Source: Escherichia phage V18. From it: a stretch of DNA of 64,000 bases. Positions 15,411 through 59,368 of the stretch are shown piece by piece (position 1 is the stretch's first letter; the number at the start of each line of letters is the position of its first letter). The stretch lies in the sequence record NC_041937.1, one strand, 5' to 3'. Below the pieces are notes generated by a model. That model saw nothing but the letters and a program-made list of their open reading frames with translations, was not told the DNA's origin and did no database searches. A program made the translations under genes and the position numbers.

Positions 15411-15689
15411 ATGAGCTGCGAAAAATCTTTTTTCATCATCATTTACGGTAAGGATAACTGCCCACACTGTGTCAGAGCAAAAGAATTTGCAATCAGCAAA
15501 GGTCTGCCTTTTGTATATAAGACACTTGGCGATGGCTACACAAAAGAAGAGCTTATTGAGAAGTGTAGTCCAATTGTCCCCAGAACGTTGCCGCAGATCT
15601 TCTTAGAAAGCGATCTTGACAGTATCCATATAGGCGGTGCCGACGATTTCATCTCTTTTGTTAAGAATGGTTTTGGAGAGAAAAAGTGA
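15411..15689 (+). CDS. glutaredoxin-like protein (NrdH/NrdC-type)
   Basis: 92 aa; CPHC redox motif near N-terminus. Confidence 0.75.
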   Translation: MSCEKSFFIIIYGKDNCPHCVRAKEFAISKGLPFVYKTLGDGYTKEELIEKCSPIVPRTLPQIFLESDLDSIHIGGADDFISFVKNGFGEKK

Positions 15690-16597
15690 AAGTTGTAAAA
15701 CGGGACGGTAGAGAAGAGTTCTATAACGGAATTAAGGTGATCAAGGCGGCAGAGTCCGCCTTACTTGAGTCTGGACATACTGAAGAAGAAGCTTACCGGA
15801 TCGCCTGCGCGGTTAATGAAGTTGTTGCTAACAATCTACCAACCGACCAGTGCACGATCTCTGTAAAAAATATCCATATCCTTGTTGAAGATGCTCTTAT
15901 GGATATGGGTTTAAAATGTGCAGCCAGAGAATACATCCAGTATAGACAGACAAGAGATAATAACAGAGAGGCAGGTGGAAAACTGCTTGCAGATATTAGT
16001 GGCTTCTTGGATCGAACTTGTGATGAATTTACAAAAGAAAACGCAAATAAGCCCACTAATCATGTACACACTCATCGTGACCTGCTTGCAGGCATCCTTA
16101 GCAAACACCTTGCATCAACACAGATCCTGCCAGACCGTGTTTCAGAAGAGCACAATAAAGGCTTCATCCATGTGCATGATCTTGACTACTTGATCAGTCC
16201 GTTAACAAACTGTTGTTTGGTAAATTATCCAGATATGTTGGAAAACGGATTCAACATTGGCAACGCCCATGTCAGTAAGCCGAAGTCAATAGGGGTTGCA
16301 ACAACAATCCTTAGCCAAATCTCTAGTGCGGTAGCTAGTGCTCAATATGGTGGTCAGACTATGAGCCATATTGATCATTATCTGGCACAGTATGCTGAAG
16401 CGACCTATGAGAAGAACCTTAAATTTTGCCAGGAACATTGGTTGCCAGATGCTGAGACTGTTGCAATGCAAATGACAGATAAAGACGTGTTTGACAGCAT
16501 GCAGACGTTGCTTTATCAGATCAACACACTAACCTCGGTAAACGGTAACCCCTTTTATCACATTAAGTTTAGGTTTGGACACTTCGGTCTTTGGTAG
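15686..16597 (+). CDS. nrdD: anaerobic ribonucleoside-triphosphate reductase, N-terminal segment
   Basis: ATP-cone N-terminus and NrdD-like body; frame lost near 16547, the last residues before the stop are out-of-frame. Confidence 0.8.
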   Translation: MKVVKRDGREEFYNGIKVIKAAESALLESGHTEEEAYRIACAVNEVVANNLPTDQCTISVKNIHILVEDALMDMGLKCAAREYIQYRQTRDNNREAGGKLLADISGFLDRTCDEFTKENANKPTNHVHTHRDLLAGILSKHLASTQILPDRVSEEHNKGFIHVHDLDYLISPLTNCCLVNYPDMLENGFNIGNAHVSKPKSIGVATTILSQISSAVASAQYGGQTMSHIDHYLAQYAEATYEKNLKFCQEHWLPDAETVAMQMTDKDVFDSMQTLLYQINTLTSVNGNPFYHIKFRFGHFGLW

Positions 16598-16796
16598 AAT
16601 GATTACCAAAAACTACCTGAAAGTCCACAAAATGGGTCTTGGTGAAGAACGTATTACACCTGTGTTCCCTAAAGTGCTGTTCTTCCTAGAAGAGGGTGTC
16701 AACATGAACCCTGGGGATCCTAACTACGATTTGAAACGATTAGCTCTGGAATGCTGTGCAGAACGTATCTACCTGACTTCGTATCTGTACCACTAA
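16575..16796 (+). CDS. nrdD: anaerobic ribonucleoside-triphosphate reductase, internal segment in a second frame
   Basis: GLGEERITPVFPK...GDPNYDLKRLALEC matches the NrdD core; frame lost again near 16773 and 16843. Confidence 0.6.
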   Translation: MDTSVFGRMITKNYLKVHKMGLGEERITPVFPKVLFFLEEGVNMNPGDPNYDLKRLALECCAERIYLTSYLYH

Positions 16797-16941
16797 ATAG
16801 AAAAGTGACAGGCTCGACAGATGGCAAAGTAACGAGCATGGGATATGTAGAAGTTTCTTATCGAAATATAGCGACCCTGTAACAGGCGAGGAGAAATACC
16901 TTGGCAGATTTAACTTAGGCGTTGTTAGCCTTAACCTGCCA

Positions 16942-17808
16942 ATGATTGCGGCAAAAGCTAAGACGGAAGGTGTTGATTTCTTTGCAGTTCTTGACGAATA
17001 CTTGGATCTTGCATACGAGGCTCACCTTGTAAGGGTTAATCGTCTAAAAGGAACAAAGGCGGGGCAGAACCCCATCATGTGGTGTGAAGGCGCTCTTGCT
17101 CGCCTGGATCCCGAAGAGAGTATTGATAAACTCTTCTATGACGGGTACGCTTCCATCAGTATTGGGTATATCGGTGTGTATGAAACCTGTCAGATTTTGG
17201 GTAGAGAAGGCGACAAGGCTTTAGCTCTTGGAATCCTTCAGCACATGAGAGATGCTTGTGAGCGATACAAGAAGGAAAGTAGACTAGCATTTAGCTTGTA
17301 CGGCACTCCTTCTGAGAGTCTATGCTATAAAGCTGCAACCTGTCTGGATCGTGAATATCCGGAAGTGTTGAAGCACGAGCATGAATATCTCACCAACAGT
17401 TTCCATCAGCCAGTATGGATAAATAGCTCTCCTTTTGATAAGTGGGAGTATGAGGAAGGTTTTGCTATGATCTCCTCTGGTGGCAACATCGGATACGTAG
17501 AGACACCTAACCTGAAAAACAACCTGGATGCTTTAGAGGCCCTTGTTGACTTCGGGTATAAACACATTATGTATTTTGGTATTAACCAACCTGTAGATAA
17601 ATGTCTCAAGTGTGGTTTCTCTGGTGAGTTCAGTGCAACAGCTAAAGGCTTTGTATGCCCAGAGTGTGGAAACCATGAAGAGGGAACGATCAGTGTAATT
17701 CGACGTGTGTCTGGATACCTTTCCAGTCCTAACTCCCGTCCTTACAATAAAGGTAAGCAAGCGGAAGTTATCGAGCGAGTTAAGCACTACGGAAGTTGTG
17801 GTTGCTGA
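16942..17808 (+). CDS. nrdD: anaerobic ribonucleoside-triphosphate reductase, C-terminal segment
   Basis: CLKCGF...CPECG zinc site and glycyl-radical region IRRVSGYL. Confidence 0.8.
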   Translation: MIAAKAKTEGVDFFAVLDEYLDLAYEAHLVRVNRLKGTKAGQNPIMWCEGALARLDPEESIDKLFYDGYASISIGYIGVYETCQILGREGDKALALGILQHMRDACERYKKESRLAFSLYGTPSESLCYKAATCLDREYPEVLKHEHEYLTNSFHQPVWINSSPFDKWEYEEGFAMISSGGNIGYVETPNLKNNLDALEALVDFGYKHIMYFGINQPVDKCLKCGFSGEFSATAKGFVCPECGNHEEGTISVIRRVSGYLSSPNSRPYNKGKQAEVIERVKHYGSCGC

Positions 17809-19021: not shown

Positions 19022-19387
19022 ATGGGTCGAGCTAAAGAAACAAAACGCATGCGTGATGAAGCTAGAGAGGCTCGCAAATCTGATCGCCTGCGTAAGGCTG
19101 CTGAGAAATTTGCTGACGAACGAGAGCACACTGCTCCAGCTCTCCGACCAATGAATAAGAAGCAGCAAAAGTATCTTGATTACCTAGGGTCGCGTAAAAT
19201 TATCATTGTAAACGGAGTGTTTGGGTCTGGTAAAACATTCATGGCATCTGCTATGCAGGTGACCTTCTGCGTAAGAATGAAATTGATAAGATCATTGTTG
19301 CACGTCCTTACGTTCAGACAGGAAAGACTTCAGGATTTAAACCTGGAAATGCAATGCAGAAACTGTGGCCCTATCTTCGAAGCATGA
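19022..19387 (+). CDS. phoH: PhoH-like ATPase, N-terminal segment (frame broken near 19255)
   Basis: Walker A GVFGSGKT; sequence after AMQ is out-of-frame. Confidence 0.7.
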   Translation: MGRAKETKRMRDEAREARKSDRLRKAAEKFADEREHTAPALRPMNKKQQKYLDYLGSRKIIIVNGVFGSGKTFMASAMQVTFCVRMKLIRSLLHVLTFRQERLQDLNLEMQCRNCGPIFEA

Positions 19388-19809
19388 TGGACACGATTTG
19401 TCGTCGTGTTGGCAAAGGTGCTTTTGCCGCAATGCTGGGAGACGGTCAGAACAGCCGTATCGAGATTTGTGAAGTTGAAAGCATTCGTGGTCGTAGTTTC
19501 GATGAGCGATGCTTTGTCCTGATTGACGAGGCACAGCAAACTAACCCTGAAGAAATGTTGTCAATTATCACAAGGATCTCTGATCAAGCCACCCTTGTAA
19601 TTATGGGTGATAATAGCCAACGTGACATCCCTGGTAAATCTGGCCTTGCATGGGTGACGGATTTCTTTACTCGTCATCCAGATCCTGAGGTTGGAATGAT
19701 CAGCTTTGATAGTCCAGACGATGTCGTTCGTTCTGGGTTGGGTCGTCAGATCGCACTCAATCTTATTGAGGATCGTGCAAATCATATTTGGACCCCTGTT
19801 TCCGAGTAA
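19354..19809 (+). CDS. phoH: PhoH-like ATPase, C-terminal segment
   Basis: VLIDEAQ (Walker B) and IMGDNSQRDIPG match PhoH; this frame extends upstream to ~19258. Confidence 0.7.
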   Translation: MQKLWPYLRSMMDTICRRVGKGAFAAMLGDGQNSRIEICEVESIRGRSFDERCFVLIDEAQQTNPEEMLSIITRISDQATLVIMGDNSQRDIPGKSGLAWVTDFFTRHPDPEVGMISFDSPDDVVRSGLGRQIALNLIEDRANHIWTPVSE

Positions 19810-27490: not shown

Positions 27491-27670
27491 ATGATTGTTT
27501 ATTTTAAAACTTCAGGTGGATACCCTGATTCTCAAAGCTTGATCGGAAAAACGTGCACAGCATACTCACCTCTTGATGAGGAGGTAAGCGATATTCTACG
27601 AAATATGTATCGGATTGACCCCCAAGAAGCTTTGATCAAAACCTTGTATTTGTCAAGGGCTCAGATATGA
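27491..27670 (+). CDS. hypothetical small protein (59 aa)
   Basis: RBS GAGGTGA before ATG 27491; below the ORF-track size cutoff. Confidence 0.3.
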   Translation: MIVYFKTSGGYPDSQSLIGKTCTAYSPLDEEVSDILRNMYRIDPQEALIKTLYLSRAQI

Positions 27671-27757
27671 AGTCTTTGGGAGCATTCCCTGAAGCAGATG
27701 ATGATGCCGTTTATTCGTTCATGACTCCTTTTGAAGCTATGGTTGTTGGGTGATAAT

Positions 27758-27949
27758 ATGAAAGTACGCTTTATTGGTGAAACAATTCCTGTGCATCTCC
27801 GGTCTCCTGAGGATTCTGCAGATCTTGCATCTCAAAAGGCGAGAGGTTATGATAAGAAAGTAACCTCAACCGATGTAGTGCTTGAGGCTACTAGCTACCT
27901 GACCCTGCTGCATTCTTTAATCATTATGGGTACTATTTCAGCAACCTGA
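27758..27949 (+). CDS. hypothetical protein
   Basis: ATG 27758 (MKVRFIGE) inside the 27731 ORF frame. Confidence 0.3.
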   Translation: MKVRFIGETIPVHLRSPEDSADLASQKARGYDKKVTSTDVVLEATSYLTLLHSLIIMGTISAT

Positions 27950-28088
27950 TGAATATCGGTGAGCTTGTATTTATTAGTGGTGGAGAAATTGTTAGCAAGC
28001 TCGGTGGCGATCCAGATGTCTTTCATGAAACCTGTCCTTTTGCATTTGTGGTAGGTTCAGATGTGGAAGTTATTGAGGAGGTGCGGTA

Positions 28089-29877: not shown

Positions 29878-30075
29878 ATGAACATCCTGATGTGGGTTGT
29901 AGCAGTGGCGTTTGTTGCATGTTTTTGCTGCTGGGTTGCGGTGAGGATTTCTGTAGCTACCTTCGGAAGTTGGGGTTCTCAGAGTGGGATATTAATATCC
30001 TTTCTTTTCGCAATGAAACAATCTCAGCCGCCCTGCTCTGTAAGAAATTCAAGTGGGAACCTTGTGAGGTCATGA
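29878..30075 (+). CDS. small membrane protein
   Basis: RBS TAAGGTG before ATG; hydrophobic WVVAVAFVACFCCWVAV. Confidence 0.35.
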   Translation: MNILMWVVAVAFVACFCCWVAVRISVATFGSWGSQSGILISFLFAMKQSQPPCSVRNSSGNLVRS

Positions 30076-30295
30076 ACTATCTAAGAACGGGGGATATCCC
30101 TGAAAGATTTAAAAAAGTTCTTGACGGCAAGGATAAATGATAGTATAGTGACTAACAAGAGGTGAGGAATGACTGATTTTACTGAAGCTTTGATGATGGC
30201 CTTGTCTGTTTTAGCGCTATCGGTATGTTTTGGGGCGTTATTCACATCTCTGGTTAAAGTTTTACATACAGTATTATTACCCAAGGAGCGCAGTA

Positions 30296-39736: not shown

Positions 39737-39877
39737 TCTATGTACCTCTTTTACAGTTCTGATTAACAATAAGGCGGCAAATATGCCGCCTGTTACCTGA
39801 TTAAAAATTATCGCCGTAAAGCTTTCCGCTTTCTGCCCATACCACCACGCGAGGCATACTATCCCACACGTCTTGTT

Positions 39878-40180
39878 TTAGATTAACGCGTGCAATTCTT
39901 CGGTGGTGCTCATACCGGGCACGGGCTGATTGTATACTGCAAAACGACCGCCTGCATAATCATAGGCCAGGGTTAAATCACACTGGATCATCTTTTTGAT
40001 CATGGCATTAAGCATGGCGTTAGCCGCATATTGATCACGTTTTAAAGGCAACTCTTTGATTAGTTTGCGATAGTTTTCGATATGGTCGCACACTGTTTCA
40101 CGAGGAAGATCTTTCATATCCTCGCGAAAGGTAACCAGGTTAAACATAACGGTGTCAATAGCTTTGGTAGTGTTTTTCAT
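39878..40180 (-). CDS. hypothetical protein
   Basis: RBS AAAGAGGA before ATG 40180. Confidence 0.4.
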   Translation of the reverse strand: MKNTTKAIDTVMFNLVTFREDMKDLPRETVCDHIENYRKLIKELPLKRDQYAANAMLNAMIKKMIQCDLTLAYDYAGGRFAVYNQPVPGMSTTEELHALI

Positions 40181-40268
40181 GATGTTATCCTCTTTGTTTT
40201 GTGTGGGGCAAATCATCGCCCCCTTGAGTTTTAATATAGCAGGTTTTTAGGTTATTGCAACACTTTAT

Positions 40269-40478
40269 TTATGAAAAAGTCATCTCACCATATTCATCGA
40301 CATCAAACCGCCAATCATTGGCCTCGATAAGGCCGATCAGGTTTTCTGCGGTGAACTGTTCTAGATAGGCCTCCTCCAGGTCTACGTAAACCTTGCGGGA
40401 TAGCTCCCGTACCGTCTCGGTGATCAGTTCTTCCAGTCTTCCACTTTGTTTTCTTGTTTGGCGGTCAGATCTAGCCAA
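40269..40478 (-). CDS. hypothetical acidic protein
   Basis: 69 aa ORF. Confidence 0.35.
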   Translation of the reverse strand: MARSDRQTRKQSGRLEELITETVRELSRKVYVDLEEAYLEQFTAENLIGLIEANDWRFDVDEYGEMTFS

Positions 40479-40497
40479 GTGGTATCAATGTACCCGC

Positions 40498-40890
40498 TTA
40501 CAGTGTTTTCATGGCTGTAATGGCTGTACTTGTCGCGTTCAACACTGGCTGATAACTCGCATCGTGCATTGTGCCGAACAAGTGACGAATTGATCGGAAC
40601 TTGGTCAGGGCCCTTACTTTACGCAAAAATTTTTCTAAATCCACGTTTTCAGCACTGATTGAAGCGCCGTCACCCTGGCACCAAAAGCCGGACCAATGTA
40701 CTTCGGTATCTTCAAGGCCGTACTCTGGAAAGATATATTCTTTGTAGTGTTCAATTACACTTTCTGCAAAAAAGTCATCCCCGCTGCGTTCTTCTCTTTC
40801 GCGGACCATTTCAATGGCTTTTTCTTTTTGTTCGTCGGTCAGCACGTCGAAAGATAAATTGCAACCTGTAGTAATGTTAACGGTAGTCAT
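40498..40890 (-). CDS. hypothetical protein
   Basis: 130 aa; RBS ATAGGAGAAAA; promoter and leader hairpin upstream. Confidence 0.4.
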   Translation of the reverse strand: MTTVNITTGCNLSFDVLTDEQKEKAIEMVREREERSGDDFFAESVIEHYKEYIFPEYGLEDTEVHWSGFWCQGDGASISAENVDLEKFLRKVRALTKFRSIRHLFGTMHDASYQPVLNATSTAITAMKTL

Positions 40891-41465: not shown

Positions 41466-41687
41466 TTATTTGTCTTTATGGCGGTATCGTTCTGCCTGTC
41501 GTTCACGTTCCAAAAGTAGGCCGGGCAATTTACGATCATAATGATTGCGCCAGATCTTCCCAAACCTTTTTGGCTTATTCAGTTTATTGTTACGCTGGCG
41601 GCGTTCTGGCAGCTCTTCGGAATCATGAGGGCGCTTTACAATTTTCTCGAAATTAATTTTCATATATTCCCCCCTTGCTAACTTCAA
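41466..41687 (-). CDS. hypothetical basic protein
   Basis: 73 aa, Arg/Lys-rich. Confidence 0.4.
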   Translation of the reverse strand: MKLARGEYMKINFEKIVKRPHDSEELPERRQRNNKLNKPKRFGKIWRNHYDRKLPGLLLERERQAERYRHKDK

Positions 41688-42004
41688 TATTGGCCTGAAT
41701 AGCCGATACGGCGCTTTATAACTTCCTGATCTGTGTGGTCATATCCCCAAAAGTCTACGATTTTTGCGCCTCCAGCCTTTAGGCGGTATAGTGTTTCTTG
41801 CATCTTGTAAGCTGGGATCGGTCGCGGTGTTACCTGGTCGCCTCTCTCATCCTTGTACTTGATAATGTAGTCTTCGTTGTCGTTGAATGCCCAAAATGGG
41901 TATTCTGTGAGCGCGTTGCTATCTTTTTCGTTTTTAGATTGGATCTTGTTTACAATTAAAGCCGTAGCAATAGCGCCAATGATAAAACTAGCCCCGCTAA
42001 TCAT
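41684..42004 (-). CDS. membrane protein
   Basis: 106 aa; N-terminal SFIIGAIATALIV. Confidence 0.4.
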   Translation of the reverse strand: MISGASFIIGAIATALIVNKIQSKNEKDSNALTEYPFWAFNDNEDYIIKYKDERGDQVTPRPIPAYKMQETLYRLKAGGAKIVDFWGYDHTDQEVIKRRIGYSGQY

Positions 42005-43037: not shown

Positions 43038-43183
43038 GTAAATTTTCAGTACTTTACCGTCCAACCTGTCAAGCTGGATCTCGATAGCTGCAGAAAACCT
43101 ATTGTACACCACGTCGCCCATAGAATCCAACCAGTCTATGACGTTATACACTTGCTCTTTGTTCTTGCAGGTCCGGATCCGTT

Positions 43184-43396
43184 TCATGATGTAAGCCGGA
43201 TCAATATTGGTACTCTCGTTGGGGCCTTTACCACCACCTGGAATGGCTTTAAGGTGCCTTTTGCGTTCATCTCACGCGCTTTTGCGGCGCGGTTGTTATA
43301 TGTTACACAACGGCGGCAAATGTTGATCAAATGCATGTCAATAATTTTTTCATCGTTTGCCAACTCGTTCATGATGCGGCGTACGTTCTTATTCAT
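43184..43396 (-). CDS. hypothetical protein
   Basis: 70 aa ORF; C-terminal part may be out of frame. Confidence 0.3.
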   Translation of the reverse strand: MNKNVRRIMNELANDEKIIDMHLINICRRCVTYNNRAAKAREMNAKGTLKPFQVVVKAPTRVPILIRLTS

Positions 43397-44215: not shown

Positions 44216-44386
44216 TCAACCATTGGTTAGAATTATTTTTTGGGCAGAATCCCCGCCCAGGTTAACCATCATTTTTTCGTACTCTTCTTTATGTTCCAAT
44301 GCTTCCGTTTTAGCCTTTTCGACCAGGGTGATAGCCTCAGCGTCATTAATCGCTACATTTCCCAGGTGAGTAGCATTACCTTTCAT
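44216..44386 (-). CDS. hypothetical small protein (56 aa)
   Basis: strong RBS GAGGAGGT 7 nt before ATG; translation checked by hand. Confidence 0.4.
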   Translation of the reverse strand: MKGNATHLGNVAINDAEAITLVEKAKTEALEHKEEYEKMMVNLGGDSAQKIILTNG

Positions 44387-46773: not shown

Positions 46774-46968
46774 TTACAGATTGCTCCAGTACAATCGGCA
46801 TTTACATTTTGGGCAATGAGGTTCTTTTATGTAATAACCGTCAGTCTTTGGAACACTTTTTGGTGCAGTTTTAAGATTGTACCTGGTAAAACATCGGAAG
46901 CAGGTTACCTCTCCCACCTGTTGATCGTTGATCCACTCACCAGAGTAAAGTTCTTTCTTGTTTCTCAT
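46774..46968 (-). CDS. small zinc-ribbon protein
   Basis: RBS GGGAGAG before ATG 46968; CFRC...CPKCKC. Confidence 0.4.
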   Translation of the reverse strand: MRNKKELYSGEWINDQQVGEVTCFRCFTRYNLKTAPKSVPKTDGYYIKEPHCPKCKCRLYWSNL

Positions 46969-47164
46969 AATTCTCTCCCAAATCATCTGCAATCTTATAC
47001 CAAAATCTCCAGCCAGAAAGCACACGGGAACACTTTGAGGATTGAATCTTTACTTGGCTCGGAAGTTCTTTTCCGTATGGTAGGTAGAAATACCCTCCTG
47101 CAGATTCGAATATAGCTCCTTCGGTTGTATCTACCACAGCAAGAATTAAGATTTTAGTCTCCAC
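46937..47164 (-). CDS. hypothetical protein
   Basis: 75 aa; own promoter-like TTGACG-17-TATAGT upstream. Confidence 0.4.
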   Translation of the reverse strand: METKILILAVVDTTEGAIFESAGGYFYLPYGKELPSQVKIQSSKCSRVLSGWRFWYKIADDLGENYEKQERTLLW

Positions 47165-47252
47165 AGTGCTCTCCTCTCTTAGTTGTTGTGGAAACTATAT
47201 CACCTCAGAAGATGGTCGTCAACACTTTTAACCTTTCATGATTGAAAAGTAT

Positions 47253-47543
47253 TCAGCATTGGGTCCTGGGTAGAACTGGGTATACAGCTAGATTGCCATA
47301 AGCAGTCTCTTTGTCGGCTGCCAGTGCTTGAGGGAACTCACGGGCAATATCTTTCGCTATACCTGCACCCATTGTGTGAAAGCAGTTACAACCGTGGATC
47401 ATGTGGCCTGACCCTTTCTTGAAAATGGAGATTAGATCTCCCTTTACAGTATCAATAATCACGGTATGCCAACTCCTCTTCCGCAATTTCAAAAAACTCA
47501 GTCCAGCACTGTGGCATATTGGAGTTACCGAAGTGGCTTTCAT
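47253..47543 (-). CDS. short protein with TARG1/DarG-type macrodomain-like N-terminal motif (possibly truncated)
   Basis: VKGDL...HGCNCFHTMGAGIAKD resembles the TARG1 block VKGDL...HCISEDCRMGAGIA; only ~96 aa. Confidence 0.3.
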   Translation of the reverse strand: MKATSVTPICHSAGLSFLKLRKRSWHTVIIDTVKGDLISIFKKGSGHMIHGCNCFHTMGAGIAKDIAREFPQALAADKETAYGNLAVYPVLPRTQC

Positions 47544-47877
47544 AGTAAAGGTTCTCACCACTTGGAAGGTAGAAATCTGTTACCTCATAGAATCCACAAT
47601 CGTCGCACTCACCTTCTTCAAACTTGGCCTCAACCTTAATACCGAGGAAGGTAAAAAGTTTATGGATATCTTCAGTTTCGAACTCCCAGTGAATGTTGTT
47701 TTCCGCATCGGTATAGAACTGGATCAGCAGACCATTGTCCAGTTTACCAAAATACTCTGTGAAGTAACTTCCTTCCCAGAAATCTTTATGACAAATAATA
47801 TCCATGCGTTTACCCATAATAATGGTGTGAGCGTTTTGGGCATCGTCACGAATCAGTTTTGGCATTTCATAGCTCAT
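47452..47877 (-). CDS. hypothetical acidic protein
   Basis: 141 aa ORF. Confidence 0.4.
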   Translation of the reverse strand: MSYEMPKLIRDDAQNAHTIIMGKRMDIICHKDFWEGSYFTEYFGKLDNGLLIQFYTDAENNIHWEFETEDIHKLFTFLGIKVEAKFEEGECDDCGFYEVTDFYLPSGENLYYESHFGNSNMPQCWTEFFEIAEEELAYRDY

Positions 47878-48718: not shown

Positions 48719-49153
48719 CTAAAAGTATTCATAGAAGTATCCATCTGGAGCTGGAATTTTTTCATGAATGTAGTAACCAATATATATTCCGGTTTCTCTG
48801 CTACAAGAGTTGTGGGATACCCATTCTTTAAGAACGTTACCATTCATGTCCAACCTCCTTACATTTTTGCACCGTCTACCGCTGGTGCTTCTATGCAACA
48901 GAATATCCTCCGTCTGCTTATCTTTATTTTCTCCCCAAGTCGTTAAACGGATATTATCAAAAGAGTACCCTTTGAAATCATCTATCCTGTCACAAGAAGG
49001 CTTTTTCCTTTTGTCGTATCCGCTGGCTACCCACTGATCATACAACTCTTTGTAACCGTTTAGGTATAGCCACTCCTTAAACTCTTTTTTGGTGTAAGTC
49101 GGAGGAGGGTGACCTCTTTGCTTGCTGTTGCACTTTTGAGCCTTGTACAACAC
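48719..49153 (-). CDS. putative HNH-family endonuclease
   Basis: PSCDRIDDFKGYSFDNIRLTTWGEN resembles the HNH_3 core (DxID...DN...EN). Confidence 0.35.
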   Translation of the reverse strand: MLYKAQKCNSKQRGHPPPTYTKKEFKEWLYLNGYKELYDQWVASGYDKRKKPSCDRIDDFKGYSFDNIRLTTWGENKDKQTEDILLHRSTSGRRCKNVRRLDMNGNVLKEWVSHNSCSRETGIYIGYYIHEKIPAPDGYFYEYF

Positions 49154-49263
49154 ACGTATTACACCTTTTTCTGAAGAGTCTTTAGCAAATTGGTCAGCCT
49201 CCCTGCTGGCCTTCTTGCAACACTCTTTGCACGTTGATTTGTTGCTGGTATAGAAGTCGGACC

Positions 49264-51201: not shown

Positions 51202-51522
51202 TTAATCGTCAAGTTCAAAATAGATTTTAACAGCTTCATCAAAGATTGGAATCCCGATGTTGTTGATAAGCTGCCAAACTACCATATCTTTACCTGGATC
51301 TGGGAGAATGTCAACCTTTCTCCATGCGCTGTATACCCAGTTCGGACCGCCTTCTGCACTAACTGGCAGATTTTCACCAGCTTCTTGTAGATACTTATAC
51401 AGCAAAAGATATTCTGGATACTCTAGAACACTGTCCTCTGTAGTATATAGCAGTTCACGGTATACTTTTAAGAACCCTGCTGGGGTAATGTTTTCAGTCT
51501 TCATTTGCCGCTTCTCCTGCAT
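51202..51522 (-). CDS. hypothetical protein
   Basis: 106 aa ORF. Confidence 0.4.
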   Translation of the reverse strand: MQEKRQMKTENITPAGFLKVYRELLYTTEDSVLEYPEYLLLYKYLQEAGENLPVSAEGGPNWVYSAWRKVDILPDPGKDMVVWQLINNIGIPIFDEAVKIYFELDD

Positions 51523-51676
51523 TCATCAGGTCTGCCATAGCGTCACCCACGAAGAGGACAACCACATCGTTGACAGCGTCAGCATCATCTTTGTTGACGT
51601 TGCTGAATTTAGGACACACAGCAATGATCATATAGACACCGTTACCAACCTGAACTGTCCGTGTGGTGCACATCAT
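51494..51676 (-). CDS. hypothetical protein
   Basis: 60 aa ORF starting ATGATG. Confidence 0.35.
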   Translation of the reverse strand: MMCTTRTVQVGNGVYMIIAVCPKFSNVNKDDADAVNDVVVLFVGDAMADLMNAGEAANED

Positions 51677-51882
51677 GGCGGTATTTGTGCCTTCTTTGAA
51701 GGCGAAGCTTGAAGACGCTCCTCTAAAGTGTTACCGGTAGATTTCAGAAGCGCCAGCTCGTCCAAGGCATAGATGATATCTCCGGAAGTTAGTGTTGCCT
51801 TGCCATCAGACACCATAATCACTCCATCAGCACCGTCAAGCTTAGAGGCTTCAAAGATATCAATATCCCAAATATTTTTCAT
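51673..51882 (-). CDS. hypothetical protein
   Basis: 69 aa ORF, ATGA coupling. Confidence 0.35.
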   Translation of the reverse strand: MKNIWDIDIFEASKLDGADGVIMVSDGKATLTSGDIIYALDELALLKSTGNTLEERLQASPSKKAQIPP

Positions 51883-53349: not shown

Positions 53350-53720
53350 TGATCGGTCTCCTTCTTGTTAAGTCTGAATACTGCAATAATAGCATTCCCA
53401 AGGTGCAGTGTCAAATCATTTCCAAGATACCACAGCATCCCACGGTCATCTTTAATGAAAGGGTAACAATCTGGTGCCTTCCAGACATTGTACACTTTGC
53501 CAACCTGAAAGAAATCAGGCCCTGTTGGGATTTTAGTTCCAGGCCACACTTGAGATACCTGAACACATTCCACCTGCATAATAACAGGGATAGTCATGGA
53601 TGTAAATGTTTTTGTTGGTTCTACTACCATAAAAGTCTCCTCTTTGCTCAACAACACTTCCATGTGTTGATAGTTTACATTAGTGACAATCACCCCAATT
53701 ACGACCACACAAGTATTCAC
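53346..53720 (-). CDS. small protein of a tandem paralog family
   Basis: VGKVYNVWKAPDCYPFIKDDRGMLWYLGND. Confidence 0.4.
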   Translation of the reverse strand: MNTCVVVIGVIVTNVNYQHMEVLLSKEETFMVVEPTKTFTSMTIPVIMQVECVQVSQVWPGTKIPTGPDFFQVGKVYNVWKAPDCYPFIKDDRGMLWYLGNDLTLHLGNAIIAVFRLNKKETDQ

Positions 53721-56457
53721 CTGTGATCTGGAACGGGACTCCCATCATTTTAGAAGCTTGCCAGAAGCAATGCACCACCATTTCACCCACAGGGCTCCAG
53801 ATAAGCTCAAGCTTTCCGTCATCGTTCAGGATAGGATCGTACACCGTGTTTCCGTCTCTGTCAACCACTTCGTTTCCGTCCTCATCCTTGCGTGCCTTTT
53901 TGTACTTATGACCGTCGAACACATGAAGTTTGGCCTCCTGCTCTGCCTTAAATGCTTCCAGTTCTTCGATTGTGTCGAAGGTGTACACAGTCTTATACTT
54001 CGGTGTGTCAGGGACTTGAAGCTGATATTCGTCATGGTAATAGATAATACGACGAACACCTTCATCGTACCACCCACGCTTCACCATTTGGTGGTGCATG
54101 AGTATCCCAACTAAGTCACACAGCGATGCACCACCATTCTGTTGGTATGCATTAAGTAAAGAGTGTTTAGATCGGGTCCAGATAGCATGACCATCAAAAG
54201 AGTAGATAAACTTCTTACCCGTTGCTTCCCAGAATTTCTCCAGATCTTCTTTACGCCCCTTAAGACCGGGGTTGGCATCCCAAAGTGCATCGATTACCCT
54301 TTGTCCCAACTCTGGAGAGATGTCCAGCATATCTGCAACTTTATCTTTTTGTGCCCCATACATAACCCCATACGTGATAGGTTTACCGTCGTTACGAGAC
54401 ACCTCTCTGCCTGCTACTTTTGTATATGCTTCAGCATTGTTTTGGTGTGCGTCCCCGTTACTTACAACATCATAATACAATCCGTTGTCGAACTCAAAGG
54501 CACCCCAAGCCCCGATAAGCTGCTCTAAGTTGGACCCGTCAATACCGATCTCAAAGTATCCTGGAGGAACACCCCACAGACTACGCATCTCTTTACCCAT
54601 GACCACTTTAGGAGATGGTTTAGGCATGTTTGCACAAATACTGTGTTTCTGTCGGGAAGTGTTTGTTAACCCAGAGCTTTTAGCAGGAAGCTTATGGTCA
54701 ATCTTCAAACGTGGATGATTAAGAAGACCAGTATCAACCTTATCCTCCTTGATTGGATCAAGTACCGATCTGCGGTTTCGCAATGATAACCACAAGACGA
54801 TATCTTTAGCCATCTCTCCGTTCAATTTTTCAAGATTCGGGCATAGGTGTCCAAACGTATCTTTCAGTTGCGGAGAAGTAATAAGTGCCCTAGCTTTTCT
54901 ACGTATTTTCCCGAATACTTCCTTTTTAATCCTTTCGGAGTTAGGAAAGCTTCGGAACTTGTGCACGGTTGTCTGGAACTTAGCATCAGTTTTGTTCCAG
55001 AAGTTGATAATCAGGTCACAATACTCTGACTCTAAAAGCTCGTCCATATATGCATATACTCGTGCATCAACATCTGCATCAGGTAGAGCTTTCTTCTTGC
55101 TGTCTTTAGTTACATCCTTAGTTCTCCACATTGTCGGAAGCCAACCAGCACTGATCAGGTATCGCTTAATGTCGTCCTGGTTGCTGATTTTCATAGGTAT
55201 CTTGCAGTCCGGCATTCGCTTCTGCTGTAGATCACTTATTGCCTGATCCATTAGCTCTTTAGGTAAAGGTTGTGGTGTGGAGGTGCCCTTAATATAGCCT
55301 CTCAAGAAATCAGCCATCTTATCGGGGTCTTTGCAGCCCATCTCTTCACACCATTTTATCCCCATCTTACTGACATCTCCTGTAGAGGTAAATGCTCGCT
55401 TAGGCGGGGCTTTGAACTCTAAAGCGCTCATATCTACAGGATAGCCAAGCTTATCTTTTAACCATTTCCAACCATTATTGGAGATTGTCCCATCTTGGTT
55501 AAACGGCTTTTCAGGGAACTTGGGCCGCTGAGACATTGACAGCTCTTTTAAAGGTAGTTGCGGTTCAACACGATCAGCGATTTCTTTCATCCACGCATCG
55601 CAACGGTCACGTAAAGCAATAGCTCCATCTATGTCAAAATACACACCCTGACGGGCCTGCAGCTCCATCAGGAAGTGCTGCAGCATGCCTCGGCGTAATG
55701 CGTTCTTCCAGGTGATCTTCTTGAACCCTTTCGGCTTCTCTTTGGCAGGATCGTACATAAAGTTCTGCATGTCAGATTTGCCGTAGAATACACCTTTTGA
55801 TTCCGCTACCAGCTCTTTCCAGAGCAGCTCCTGGATGATAACGTCCTCGAATACACGATCCACATACTTCCACAACGGAAGATCGCGCCAGTCATCAATT
55901 TGAACTTTCTGGTTACCAAGGGCGTAGCCCCATGCCATAAGGCCGTGAGGACCAACAGGTTGCATTTTCTTAGTAACCGGGTTGAATACAGCGTCCGGAC
56001 AACCTTTTGGTAAAGGGCGATCAGGCCACAAGATTCGGCTCATAGCCAACGTATCAAACAGGTTAACCTGGTGGTCGTTGATAGTCCCCATGCATTTAGG
56101 ATCACGGAACATATCAAAATGAATACCGGATAATCTTTCCATCAGCATAAAGTCATAACTGTAGCAGTTATGGCAGTTCAAAGCTGTTGGTGACCAGTCG
56201 GAATTGCCTGTAAGCCAACCTTCCAACTCCGAAAAATCTGCTATGCGAACTTCAAAATCTTTATAAAGAGTTTTCTTTGCCAGAATAAAGTTCTTAGCCT
56301 TTTCTATATCCTCCTCGGAGTAGTGTGTGCGGCTATTTAGAGGAAGGAACAGCATAAAACGGTTCTTATTCAGCTCTTTAAACAGACCGCAGTGATAATA
56401 AAGATCTGGGTCTTCCAGCAAACCGGATGACTCAAAATCGAACGACCACATACTCAT
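53680..56457 (-). CDS. DNA polymerase, family A (Pol I/T7-like) with 3'-5' exonuclease domain
   Basis: 925 aa; N-terminal FDFESSGL (Exo I), motif B-like KPITYGVMYGAQ, motif C YYHDEYQ. Confidence 0.9.
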   Translation of the reverse strand: MSMWSFDFESSGLLEDPDLYYHCGLFKELNKNRFMLFLPLNSRTHYSEEDIEKAKNFILAKKTLYKDFEVRIADFSELEGWLTGNSDWSPTALNCHNCYSYDFMLMERLSGIHFDMFRDPKCMGTINDHQVNLFDTLAMSRILWPDRPLPKGCPDAVFNPVTKKMQPVGPHGLMAWGYALGNQKVQIDDWRDLPLWKYVDRVFEDVIIQELLWKELVAESKGVFYGKSDMQNFMYDPAKEKPKGFKKITWKNALRRGMLQHFLMELQARQGVYFDIDGAIALRDRCDAWMKEIADRVEPQLPLKELSMSQRPKFPEKPFNQDGTISNNGWKWLKDKLGYPVDMSALEFKAPPKRAFTSTGDVSKMGIKWCEEMGCKDPDKMADFLRGYIKGTSTPQPLPKELMDQAISDLQQKRMPDCKIPMKISNQDDIKRYLISAGWLPTMWRTKDVTKDSKKKALPDADVDARVYAYMDELLESEYCDLIINFWNKTDAKFQTTVHKFRSFPNSERIKKEVFGKIRRKARALITSPQLKDTFGHLCPNLEKLNGEMAKDIVLWLSLRNRRSVLDPIKEDKVDTGLLNHPRLKIDHKLPAKSSGLTNTSRQKHSICANMPKPSPKVVMGKEMRSLWGVPPGYFEIGIDGSNLEQLIGAWGAFEFDNGLYYDVVSNGDAHQNNAEAYTKVAGREVSRNDGKPITYGVMYGAQKDKVADMLDISPELGQRVIDALWDANPGLKGRKEDLEKFWEATGKKFIYSFDGHAIWTRSKHSLLNAYQQNGGASLCDLVGILMHHQMVKRGWYDEGVRRIIYYHDEYQLQVPDTPKYKTVYTFDTIEELEAFKAEQEAKLHVFDGHKYKKARKDEDGNEVVDRDGNTVYDPILNDDGKLELIWSPVGEMVVHCFWQASKMMGVPFQITGEYLCGRNWGDCH

Positions 56458-56515: not shown

Positions 56516-58222
56516 TTAAAAAGGCGTTTCATCATCCTCAAAACCAGGGACCGGGTCAGAGGATGGATCATCGTACTGGAGGTCTTCCTGCGTGTCAACA
56601 GGCTTAACAGTAGGAGTTACAACCTTATCAGCCACAACCTTGCCCATAGGTGTTTCTACAACTGCATGCTCCTGATCCTCAAACATAGCCTGAGGTCTCC
56701 AAACAACCTCCCCGCCTTCTCCGTCTGTAAACATTTGCATTTCTTTGTCCCAGTACCAATTACTGGCATCATGGAACTTACCTGTGTGCGGGTCCATAAC
56801 CAAAGTGTCAGCAATACCTAGAGTTTTTGCTGGACGGTTTTTAAGACCTACCAGACGGACACGTCCACGAGAACGATCCACCATTTCTTCGGCCTCGACA
56901 CCTATGACTACCCAACTCAACTGTTCAAGCCCAGCCGATCCTCGCAAATTCTCTTTTCGCACAGGATACCAGAAAGGTAACGGGTTACCATCCTTGTCCT
57001 TAGGAGGCACAATCTCTGTACGTTTGAGGTGAGCGATCACCAAGATAAACACATTAAACTGCTTACAAAACGCAGCCAGTTGGGTCATAGCCATGTCCAG
57101 TTCTTTTCGCTCATCCTTAACATTAAGCCCTGAAATTACCATGGACAGGTGATCCAGCACAATATAACGACAATGGTACAGGCAAACCATTTGCTTAAGC
57201 TTGGTAATCAACTCGTCCACCGGAATAGACCCGAAATGTTTGAACACTTTGATTTTTCCAGCTTTTGCCCATGATTGGTGAATCTCTGCGTGTTCTTGAT
57301 CAGTTAAAAACTGGCTAGGATCTTCAACAAACTCTTTAACATCAAACCCTAACTGGTTTGCATACAAGGAGTTAATTGCTTCCTCTGGGTCCTCCTCAAG
57401 ATGGATCATGCATAGACGATCATCCTCTTCATAGTCATCAGCCTTCGGGCATGTCGGGTCCATTAGGTATCTTGCAATACAGTGTTCCAGTTTTTTAGCC
57501 ACGGTTGTTTTACCGCCCCCTGATGGCCCTGTAAGCATTACGAGTGTCCCTTTGTGCAAGCCTTTTAGCATTTTTTGCAGTTTTGGGAACTCTGCGCTGA
57601 TATCTACCCCGTTGGAAGTCTTTTTCCGCAAAGACTCGATAGAGAAGTCTTCTAAATCCGACACAGCATCAGGCACATATTTAACAGGATGCCGGAACAT
57701 GTTGACAATATCTTCCAGCTTTTTAGCCTTCAGCATGTCACGGATATCTTTTACACCGTCAGGATCGTTTACCTCACCGGGGTATTCTACGTGGTAAACG
57801 TTATCAGCCATCAAAAATGCTGCAATATTGTGCGTGGCCTCGACACCTTTAATGACGTGTTTTTGCTTCTCTACCTCGTTAGCTGCATCGTTATCCATTG
57901 CCAGCACAACTGTTCCATAGCTACGGATAAACTTCTCATTGTTTGCAAAAGTATCTACTGCGTTTGCACATCCACAGTTAATTCCAACAAAAGGTAGGCA
58001 AGGTTTTCCTGCCAGATCACCACCGTTGATAACTGCGTCGATCCCGTCCTGGACCTCTTTAGCCCACTGCTTCACCTTTGCCGGGGCTTTAGCGTTGGTG
58101 AGAATCCCTTTTACTTGTATCTGATATGCAGCCTGCCATGCTGCAATAACATCACCTTCTCCCTCACAAACGTTAATCTGCTTACGGTTGTTGGAAGATG
58201 CACACAGCTTTTGACCAAACAT
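56516..58222 (-). CDS. primase-helicase (T7 gp4-like): TOPRIM plus DnaB-family helicase
   Basis: 568 aa; TOPRIM VLAMDNDAANE; Walker A TGPSGGGKT; acidic C-terminus ending EDDETPF. Confidence 0.85.
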   Translation of the reverse strand: MFGQKLCASSNNRKQINVCEGEGDVIAAWQAAYQIQVKGILTNAKAPAKVKQWAKEVQDGIDAVINGGDLAGKPCLPFVGINCGCANAVDTFANNEKFIRSYGTVVLAMDNDAANEVEKQKHVIKGVEATHNIAAFLMADNVYHVEYPGEVNDPDGVKDIRDMLKAKKLEDIVNMFRHPVKYVPDAVSDLEDFSIESLRKKTSNGVDISAEFPKLQKMLKGLHKGTLVMLTGPSGGGKTTVAKKLEHCIARYLMDPTCPKADDYEEDDRLCMIHLEEDPEEAINSLYANQLGFDVKEFVEDPSQFLTDQEHAEIHQSWAKAGKIKVFKHFGSIPVDELITKLKQMVCLYHCRYIVLDHLSMVISGLNVKDERKELDMAMTQLAAFCKQFNVFILVIAHLKRTEIVPPKDKDGNPLPFWYPVRKENLRGSAGLEQLSWVVIGVEAEEMVDRSRGRVRLVGLKNRPAKTLGIADTLVMDPHTGKFHDASNWYWDKEMQMFTDGEGGEVVWRPQAMFEDQEHAVVETPMGKVVADKVVTPTVKPVDTQEDLQYDDPSSDPVPGFEDDETPF

Positions 58223-58239
58223 CTGGGAGTTGGCCTTTA

Positions 58240-58509
58240 CTATGCTACTACAGACCAGTGCCCTTTCTGCTCTTTCGGCTTAGACCAGTCACGCTTTTTG
58301 AAACCAGACAGATTTCCGTAGCGGTCGTAATATGGGAAATATGTTGCAGTGACTGTCACACCGTCTTCTTGGGACAATGCTGATCGCACACCAAAATATT
58401 GTGCAGCCATCAGACCGATATTTTGTTGTGGGACAGGGACAATTTTAGTATTTTCTAAAACAGTCTCTACAGTTTCAACCTCTTTTTCATCACGATAGTC
58501 TCGTTTCAT
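58240..58509 (-). CDS. primase RNA-polymerase-domain N-terminal segment, frame-separated from the primase-helicase
   Basis: RSALSQEDG...YDRYGNLSGFKKRD resembles the T7 gp4 segment YSALTARGIS...YRDQNGNIVSQKVRD; no Cys4 zinc-binding domain. Confidence 0.55.
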   Translation of the reverse strand: MKRDYRDEKEVETVETVLENTKIVPVPQQNIGLMAAQYFGVRSALSQEDGVTVTATYFPYYDRYGNLSGFKKRDWSKPKEQKGHWSVVA

Positions 58510-58582
58510 ACTACCCCCACTTTTGTATCTTGTTGCAACTGGGTTAGGTTCTCCATAGCGGCTATATGCAGAGGATATAAAC

Positions 58583-59368
58583 TTATTCCCCTCTCCTTAC
58601 TACAGGCTCGTTTGCTAAGAATACAGCTTTTGCCCAGCCACGTGGTGTGAGGCTTCGAATCATCTTCGTTCTTGCACTCTTTCCACCAAGCTTGGCGTGT
58701 TGCATGGAATACCCGCTAACCACGTCAACTATTTGCGGGACAGGTTTTGTGTCCGGGATTATAAATCCATTACCTATCCAGCCGCAAGTTATTTTTGGAT
58801 AGGCATCACGTGGAGCTATAAATTCAGGAAACCATGGGTTTACATCATCCTCAGGTAAATACCCGCCATAGTCAGAAGGATGAAAACGGTAATCAGGTTT
58901 GCGCCACAGTGTGGACATAACACCAACAGGATTCTCTACATGCCACGGGCAATCGTAAATCTCTCCCAGCTCTTCCGCAACCCGAGCATCCTTTACAGCA
59001 TTAATTTGGATCATGGGGTCCTTAGCCAGCTTTTTCTTAAAATGTGCAGCACCCGATACCGCTAAATGCGTGCACGGAGGAAATGCAAGAATAAAGTCTG
59101 GAGCTGGATACATGCAAAAAGTTTCCTGAGGGAACCACGGGTCAATCCAATAGTCAACATAGTGAATGTTGGGATGATCGGTTATCACCTCTGCATAACT
59201 GCCGTGATCAGCACCTTCTGCGTTAAAGCACAGGCACAGATATCCAGCTTTTGCCCAGTCAATGACTGCACCACCAGACCCGTCAAATAGACTCCACACA
59301 ACACCTTTGTGGTAGTGTTCTTTGTAGATAAATTTCAATTTGCTGTCTCCTAATGCAAAAAGCCCCAC
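58583..59368 (-). CDS. putative DNA cytosine-5 methyltransferase-like protein
   Basis: 261 aa; SLFDGSGG (motif I-like), FPPCTH (PC motif), HVENPVG (ENV motif). Confidence 0.5.
   Translation of the reverse strand: MGLFALGDSKLKFIYKEHYHKGVVWSLFDGSGGAVIDWAKAGYLCLCFNAEGADHGSYAEVITDHPNIHYVDYWIDPWFPQETFCMYPAPDFILAFPPCTHLAVSGAAHFKKKLAKDPMIQINAVKDARVAEELGEIYDCPWHVENPVGVMSTLWRKPDYRFHPSDYGGYLPEDDVNPWFPEFIAPRDAYPKITCGWIGNGFIIPDTKPVPQIVDVVSGYSMQHAKLGGKSARTKMIRSLTPRGWAKAVFLANEPVVRRGE

Follow-up and report, generated by a model that had tools for sequence, protein, structure and literature searches.

Background

The closest homologue of the locus described here for which a phenotype has been demonstrated is gene tk.4 of bacteriophage T4. 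In a transposon screen it was the sole T4 gene specifically required on E. coli expressing DarTG2, a defence that ADP-ribosylates DNA; a clean knockout became DarTG2-sensitive, and the gene, which is dispensable in the laboratory, was named adfM, for 'anti-DarT factor, macrodomain' (10.1101/2025.11.20.689424). For gp104 of PhiKZ, the AdfM of a chimallivirus, there is biochemical evidence that the protein takes DarT2-made ADP-ribose off DNA (PMC13309987). For T4 Tk.4 itself, support for a DarTG2 role comes from genetics only. The macrodomain of PhiKZ AdfM is more distantly related and keeps the catalytic Lys. A further group of phage macrodomains, the Poa1p-like Adpp proteins, dephosphorylates ADPR-1P and counters aRES defence when linked to NARP1 (10.64898/2026.01.28.702374). 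The literature on tk.4 as a target of the sRNA ArcZ, or on a missense variant in T4 stocks, is irrelevant here.

The sequence under study (the window, i.e. the whole stretch of 64,000 nucleotides from Escherichia phage V18, NC_041937.1) derives from an rV5-like phage (Vequintavirus). It carries what is very probably a broken Vequintavirus orthologue of T4 tk.4/adfM, the remnant of which has lost macrodomain activity. Judged from its sequence, the locus is a member of the T4 Tk.4/AdfM family by descent, but not an intact one.

Reading frame and gene neighbourhood

The relevant open reading frame is on the minus strand and ends at 47253. It is 96 aa long when read from an ATG at 47543 and 102 aa at its longest, from a GTG at 47561. 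The original prediction had placed the gene at 47253–47543 and pointed to a VKGDL-x14 block of the TARG1/DarG type. The motif is real, in the form VKGDL-x12-HGCNCFHTMGAGIAKD, but the spacer from VKGDL to HGCNCF in VKGDLISIFKKGSGHMIHGCNCFHTMGAGIAKD is 12 residues rather than 14. Likewise, an ORF with its minus-strand end at 47253 exists, but its proposed boundaries are wrong, since in the relatives the macro gene starts at a GTG equivalent to window position 47462 (by homology to slur12 CUL03238.1 and to P0001, the intact orthologue from phage Bas59 EduardKellenberger). This start overlaps the stop codon of the upstream gene by 11 nt. The ATG at 47543 was rejected as the true start, as the stretch 47463–47543 is another frame of the conserved upstream gene's 3' end, and all relatives begin at the VIIDT/MIIDT codon. 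The upstream gene itself (47452..47877, minus strand) encodes a 141-aa protein of PHROG 8157, function unassigned, with 99.3% identity to FV3_00192; it is its 3' end, read in another frame, that supplies the spurious N-terminal extension of the ORF from 47543.

The remnant macrodomain reading frame therefore occupies 47253..47462 on the minus strand (GTG, 69 codons, TGA), with its start placed by homology. Its 69-aa product consists of 58 native residues (VIIDTVKGDL...ETAYGNL) followed by 11 frameshifted residues (AVYPVLPRTQC). The native in-frame residues 1–58 lie at 47289..47462 (minus strand), where tblastn of the FV3 macro protein gives 96.6% identity. In the P0001 model they correspond to strand 1, helix 1, strand 2, the first ADP-ribose-binding loop (HGCNCFHTMGAGIA) and two helices.

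Downstream, at 46998..47164 (minus strand), is a small gene homologous to the 56-aa FV3_00190. It too is broken in frame, by a 1-nt deletion at 47069 that gives rise to a 75-aa ORF at 46937–47164. Its strong sigma-70-like promoter (47194..47222, minus strand; TTGACG, a 17-nt spacer, TATAGT and a TG extension) overlaps the macro gene's native stop codon and is also conserved in slur12 and ECO111 5-P. On the other side, about 1.2 kb upstream of the macro gene, the window contains a 539-bp segment (48725–49263) that is missing in FV3 and may be a mobile, homing-endonuclease-like insertion. A 144-aa ORF there (48719–49153, minus strand) has no Pfam hit, and slur12 has a 192-aa hypothetical CDS at the matching place.

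Relationship to known macrodomains

The counterpart CDS in slur12 is a 152-aa 'Macro domain protein', and elsewhere the same gene is annotated as 'Poa1p-like family protein' or 'phosphatase'. Even the 69-aa remnant is readily assigned. It matches positions 54–111 of PHROG 335 ('phosphatase') with E = 5.6e-23 (4e-59 for the intact slur12 protein) and residues 1–59 of T4 Tk.4 in BLASTP, with 45% identity over 60 aa and E = 5e-20. P0001 and T4 Tk.4 align over their full length with 39% identity and 67% similarity (E = 6e-44). The reservation that the motif match might be fortuitous can accordingly be dropped, the PHROG 335 similarity being far beyond chance. By tblastn, the family was found in 2,831 of 50,697 phage records, the T-even copies being gene tk.4. 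In a large protein database it forms 267 clusters, and among the best ~120–150 listed most members are 145–180 aa long, with few decay alleles.

Searches with general macrodomain profiles distinguish clearly between the remnant and the intact protein. Against Pfam Macro (PF01661; gathering score 22 bits) the scores are 15.3 bits for the remnant and 14.3 bits for the 102-aa ORF, both below gathering and both matching model positions 1–32 of 118, while the intact slur12 orthologue reaches 25.9 bits and passes. A search with general macrodomain profiles, which had been proposed as a check, thus sees the ORF itself only weakly, below threshold, but is positive for its intact orthologue. In NCBIfam, the DarG model NF048014 gives the intact orthologue E = 1.7e-11 and 44 bits, and the remnant 13.8 bits, against a cut-off of 250 bits; this cut-off is set at equivalog level for a macrodomain plus a DarT-binding C-terminal domain, 338 model positions compared with a protein of 152 aa. 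Among solved structures the best match of the remnant is Poa1p (E = 0.005), and TARG1 was not found in that search with the remnant alone. The intact single sequence and a 36-member family profile, on the other hand, match SCO6735, BT1257, the DarG macrodomains (5M3I, 5M31), TARG1 and Poa1p, with E-values for the family profile of ~1e-14 to 6e-11. An hhalign comparison of the family with human TARG1, the sequence of which was checked against PDB entry 2LGR, gives 97.7% and E = 1.4e-12, with VKGDL aligned on VKGDL and MGAGIA on MGAGIA, in agreement with the original prediction.

Structure prediction gives a similar picture. The AlphaFold2 model of P0001 has a pLDDT of 94.8 and six strands (residues 2–8, 20–25, 64–71, 74–82, 114–116 and 144–149), and its best Foldseek match in the PDB is TARG1 (E = 3.8e-10), followed by Poa1p and DarG (TM 0.74–0.77). 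The remnant, in a single-sequence run that is a weak test of foldability, yields a model with a pLDDT of 41.6 and no sheet. The macrodomain fold is therefore found where the intact orthologue is modeled, but not for the remnant. As a statement about family, the earlier assignment to the TARG1/DarG type is borne out by the Pfam Macro score of the intact orthologue and by its best structural matches.

Compared with T4 Tk.4/AdfM, the intact Vequintavirus orthologue is a stand-alone macrodomain of the same length. Both have the invariant HGCNCFHTMGAGIA, NxYTQ and PxIGxGI(G/A)G motifs, and both genes are found within an early-gene cluster of small ORFs. The window copy differs from T4 Tk.4 in that residues 59–80 and ~100–149 are missing and the frame is shifted, and its place is between a PHROG 8157 gene and the 56-aa gene, as opposed to the tk.3-tk.4-vs neighbourhood of T4.

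The DarG macrodomain (PDB 5M31, 5M3E, 5M3I) belongs to the same fold class as P0001, and its profile match to the family has E = 3.5e-14, with N26 of the family aligned with N22 of DarG in the first loop. However, the catalytic Lys (K80 in DarG, K78 in PhiKZ) is replaced by an invariant Gln in the Tk.4 family. This residue, Q84, stands opposite the Lys of the DarG PTKKHW motif (K80 of TaqDarG), and in the window its codon is out of frame. The phage protein also lacks the DarT-binding C-terminal domain of DarG, and its gene has no darT beside it. The neighbouring small phage ORFs gave no DarT-type Pfam hit, and FV3 and slur12 have the same synteny.

TARG1/OARD1 (PDB 4J5S) is the top Foldseek hit of the intact orthologue, with identical VKGDL and MGAGIA motifs, but overall identity is only ~25%, and the catalytic K84 and D125 of TARG1 align with Q84 and G124 of the family. 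With yeast Poa1p and phage Adpp the intact phage family has in common the fold class and the H-x-C-N-C motif of the first loop. The likeness to Poa1p, which is longer (180 aa), is the historic source of the 'phosphatase' annotation. Unlike Adpp, the macro gene has no NARP1 linkage, either in the four flanking ORFs or in the annotation of the corresponding 65 kb of FV3, and the likeness of the Adpp of Vibrio phage Gary to the Tk.4 family is known here only via the resemblance of both to Poa1p.

The two deletions

The DNA of the locus is ~98% identical to the macro-domain genes of rV5-like phages. A 2-kb query covering it matches 121 phage records, with up to 98.2% identity, and every good match spans ~215 bases more than the window does. 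Alignment of the window with slur12 and ECO111 5-P resolves this difference into two deletions.

The first, of 65 bp, has its junction at 47288/47287. It removes codons D59 to N80 (including K60, G62 and N80) and shifts the frame after residue 58. The second, of 150 bp, has its junction at 47230/47229 and takes approximately residues 100–149, that is, the C-terminal third with the IPKIGCGIGGLKW loop, the last helix and the last strand. It spares the native stop codon, directly in front of which it ends, and leaves intact the next promoter, whose -35 box overlaps that codon. Between the two deletions, direct reading and alignment show an island of 58 bp of macro-gene DNA (47230..47287, minus strand). 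Its native frame encodes LYTQFYPGPNAEYFSIMKG (residues 81–99); here it is out of frame and holds the premature stop. Microhomology at either junction amounts to 1–2 nt at most. The original prediction had allowed that an ORF of ~96 aa might be truncated, and with 65 and 150 bp missing from a 459-nt gene this was correct. Rescue of the gene by programmed frameshifting or an intron was rejected, as 150 bp of the coding sequence, with the second binding loop in it, are missing altogether.

Both deletions appear confined to this record. Each of the 117 Vequintavirus records in the phage collection has the full-length gene of 459 nt (152 aa) in one piece. Neither junction sequence had a match in IMG/VR, GTDB genomes or JGI metagenomes, the macro locus had none in RefSeq E. 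coli, and the gene-position index has no gene on record with the exact 69-aa remnant product.

Indels elsewhere in the window

The macro gene is far from the only interrupted gene. Of the proteins of FV3, 127 have a homologue in the window, and for 16 of these the homologue is divided between reading frames; the helicase/primase, PhoH, NrdD, a Dam-like methyltransferase and the small gene directly downstream of the macro remnant are among them. Examples of split genes are found at 2372–2814, 7316–8117, 15686–17808, 19022–19806, 27491–28086 and 29878–30137, and further ones at 39804–40890, 41656–42004, 43038–43396, 46998–47164, 51497–51882 and 56519–58590. Relative to FV3, the coding sequence of the window shows 22 deletions and 6 insertions of a single base, together with two longer deletions, of 13 and 43 bp. 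The 43-bp deletion (at 43223, in the minus-strand homologue of FV3_00178 at 43038–43396) is private to the window, and the 13-bp deletion (at 44251) is in a small early gene. The four deletions of at least 13 bp, i.e. these and the two in the macro gene, cluster within 43.2–47.3 kb.

In PhoH, identity is 99–100% on either side of a 1-nt deletion. The replicative helicase/primase (56519–58590, minus strand; 692 aa in FV3) has lost 1 nt at ~58245, which shifts its frame, and nearly all of 114 matching relatives span one base more than the window at this site. Phage vB_Eco_Alma has the same helicase span as the window, and separate primase and helicase features are annotated there. The nrdD gene (15686–17808, plus strand) has three frameshifting indels within 320 bp, at 16545 (-2), 16771 (-1) and 16843 (+2). 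The first of them is at the position where an HNH homing-endonuclease insertion splits nrdD in FV3, and may be either a scar left by the endonuclease or part of the general indel load.

Substitutions behave differently from indels. They look selected: 18,460 aligned codons contain no more than ~2 genuine in-frame stops. Most of the small deletions lie in runs of 1–2 bases, outside homopolymers, and there is no enrichment at CCWGG or GATC, with 5 of 46 close to such a site (background 5.7%), so that a platform signature based on homopolymers or Dcm/Dam motifs was rejected as an explanation of them. Taken together, the 16 split genes out of 127, the private indels and the selected substitutions suggest a damaged or error-laden sequence.

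Two further differences in organization were observed. The DNA polymerase gene (53680–56457, minus strand) is a contiguous ORF of 925 aa in the window, while that of FV3 is interrupted by an 842-bp HNH-endonuclease segment (at 54033/54034); this is a presence/absence polymorphism of a homing endonuclease among Vequintaviruses. The rightward and leftward gene blocks are separated by a CDS-free region of ~2.2 kb in FV3 (104,328–106,594; ~33.3–35.4 kb in the window), and the equivalent ~2-kb region of Bas54 tolerated no transposon insertions in the HIDEN-SEQ study.

Origin of the deletions

The macro deletions are private, and they stand among dozens of private, deletion-biased and frame-breaking indels, a load that a viable lytic phage is unlikely to carry. 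Both points favour damage or error at the level of the record, and it is on balance probable, if by a modest measure of confidence, that the deletions are part of it and do not reflect selected gene loss. The real phage would then have an intact adfM-type gene, a reading to which we incline slightly and which fits equally with the locus being a broken copy as it stands in the window. The frame-split genes include the helicase/primase, which is presumably essential, every indel tested (in the helicase, the 43-bp deletion and the macro deletions) is private to the window, and the indels, in contrast to the substitutions (~2 nonsense codons in 18,460), show no sign of purifying selection. The macro junctions, moreover, have no microhomology beyond 1–2 nt, whereas natural loss alleles show repeats (QFY, WEH). 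Against an artefact, consensus errors are not usually deletions as long as 43–150 bp, clean losses of 65 and 150 bp are atypical of base-calling errors, and the small deletions match no familiar platform error profile.

Genuine loss of the adfM-type gene, either neutral, in hosts without DarTG2, or selected, where the macrodomain is costly or sensed, is possible but rather doubtful. It would agree with the dispensability of tk.4 in the laboratory for T4 (10.1101/2025.11.20.689424) and with the split tk.4 of a T4 mutant clone, and with the position of deletion 2, which just fails to reach the downstream promoter. Short-read assemblies contain Vequintavirus-like contigs with at least three more decay alleles of independent origin (loci L006:1501–1866, L007:1501–1779 and L008:1501–1779, and protein P0054). 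In P0015, on a syntenic contig of 135.5 kb, the N-terminus of the upstream gene is fused to macro residues 87–152 at a shared QFY; P0017, seen in two samples, has an in-frame deletion between two WEH repeats; and P0054 has a frameshift. The existence of these natural alleles makes a real deletion plausible, and they point to recurrent loss of adfM-type genes. On the other hand, the gene is kept in every one of the sequenced Vequintaviruses compared, frameshifts are also found in genes that a viable phage would be expected to need, which means that the deletions are not specific to the macro gene, and two separate deletions in a single 459-nt gene with no junction microhomology would be unusual. 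In the T4 mutant clone, the laboratory mutant T4_7t1 (OL964745.1, L004:631–1006), the annotation divides tk.4/adfM into two short 'macro domain-containing' CDSs.

Function of the intact gene

By homology with T4 AdfM and by analogy with PhiKZ AdfM, the intact Vequintavirus protein most likely removes DarT2-made ADP-ribose from phage DNA. In the proposed scheme, a stand-alone macrodomain of 152 aa, belonging to the TARG1/DarG/Poa1p structural clade, would free the thymidines of phage DNA from the ADP-ribose attached by DarT2, which would let the phage replicate in DarTG2 hosts. In the window copy, the frame is shifted after residue 58 by the 65-bp deletion, and the C-terminal third is taken by the 150-bp deletion. 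The suggestion that a phage macrodomain could reverse DNA ADP-ribosylation of the DarT type was right for the family, given the T4 tk.4 genetics and the PhiKZ AdfM biochemistry.

The label 'TARG1/DarG-type' does not, however, extend to catalysis. Throughout the Tk.4 family, Gln84 takes the place of the catalytic Lys found in DarG (K80), TARG1 (K84) and PhiKZ AdfM (K78), and Gly that of TARG1 D125. SCO6735 and BT1257 also carry Gln at the catalytic Lys position of DarG and TARG1. In addition, the first loop of Tk.4/AdfM, H23-x-C-N26-C, resembles that of Poa1p, including Poa1p H23. With Gln in place of the catalytic Lys and a Poa1p-like HxCNC motif, the ancestral chemistry could differ, and that of the Tk.4/AdfM family may differ from that of DarG.

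These same residues bear on a different function, that of an ADPR-1''-phosphate phosphatase of the Adpp/Poa1p kind acting against NAD+ depletion by aRES, or some other ADP-ribose-directed role, which we consider unlikely. It would account for Poa1p as the best solved relative of the remnant, for the common H-x-C-N-C motif with its H23 and for the lack of the DarG/TARG1 catalytic Lys. It would also fit the annotation of T4 Tk.4 and many homologues as 'A1pp phosphatase', and the dephosphorylation of ADPR-1P by Poa1p-like phage macrodomains (10.64898/2026.01.28.702374). Adpp is, however, defined by its position in a NARP1 operon, no more than two genes away from Adps and Namat. The four nearest neighbours of the macro gene have no Adps/Namat-type Pfam hit, the annotation of the matching 65 kb of FV3 contains no NARP1-type gene, and NARP1 linkage of family members was sought in two Vibrio phages with none found. 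Furthermore, T4 Tk.4 is a much closer homologue and has a demonstrated DarTG2 phenotype, in keeping with the preferred role in removing ADP-ribose from DNA.

If the deletions were real and adaptive, with Vequintaviruses repeatedly discarding an adfM that is sensed by some host defence, the gene would be both counter-defence and trigger, but this is very unlikely.

What the remnant retains

Two of the six beta-strands defined by the P0001 model remain in frame in the remnant. Macrodomains need both loops for ADP-ribose binding. Loop 1 (HGCNCFHTMGAGIA) is kept, and loop 2 (IPKIGCGIGG) is inside the 150-bp deletion. There are 16 family-invariant residues (H23, G24, N26, C27, M31, G32, G34, A36, D50, N80, Y82, T83, Q84, P117, G120 and G122), and the first nine, H23 to D50, are retained. 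Those lost from the remnant product, about 6–7 of the 16, comprise N80, P117, G120 and G122, which are deleted, and Y82, T83 and Q84, which are encoded but out of frame; this means that the invariant NxYTQ motif and the PKIGxG loop are both missing from the product. Without four strands, loop 2 and these invariant residues, the remnant cannot form the ADP-ribose pocket, and we conclude with high confidence that it is a non-functional macrodomain. The notion that the ORF itself could perform an anti-defence function does not survive this, only residues 1–58 being in frame.

A functional mini-protein, be it a truncated ADP-ribose binder or an anti-defence factor, is extremely improbable: the remnant retains its GTG start with a GAGGAG-like ribosome-binding site ahead of it, as well as N26 within the first ligand loop and a strong PHROG 335 score, but these are outweighed by the missing strands, loop and invariant residues, the poor pLDDT of the remnant model, the lack of any gene with such a product in the gene-position index, and the length of the family members listed, which, a few decay alleles aside, are mostly of full size.

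Implications

The discovery value of the locus is small. The family, with members in about 2,800 of 50,697 phage records, is already known, its anti-DarTG2 role has already been reported, and the copy here is disrupted and offers no novelty. The numerous private, frame-breaking deletions in the window mean that findings of a 'short ORF' or 'truncated gene' within it need to be checked against relatives first. For the genus, the gene annotated variously as 'phosphatase', 'Poa1p-like' or 'macro domain' in Vequintavirus genomes can be labelled as the AdfM/Tk.4 orthologue. If the sequence is accurate, a phage with the broken macro allele should be sensitive to DarTG2.
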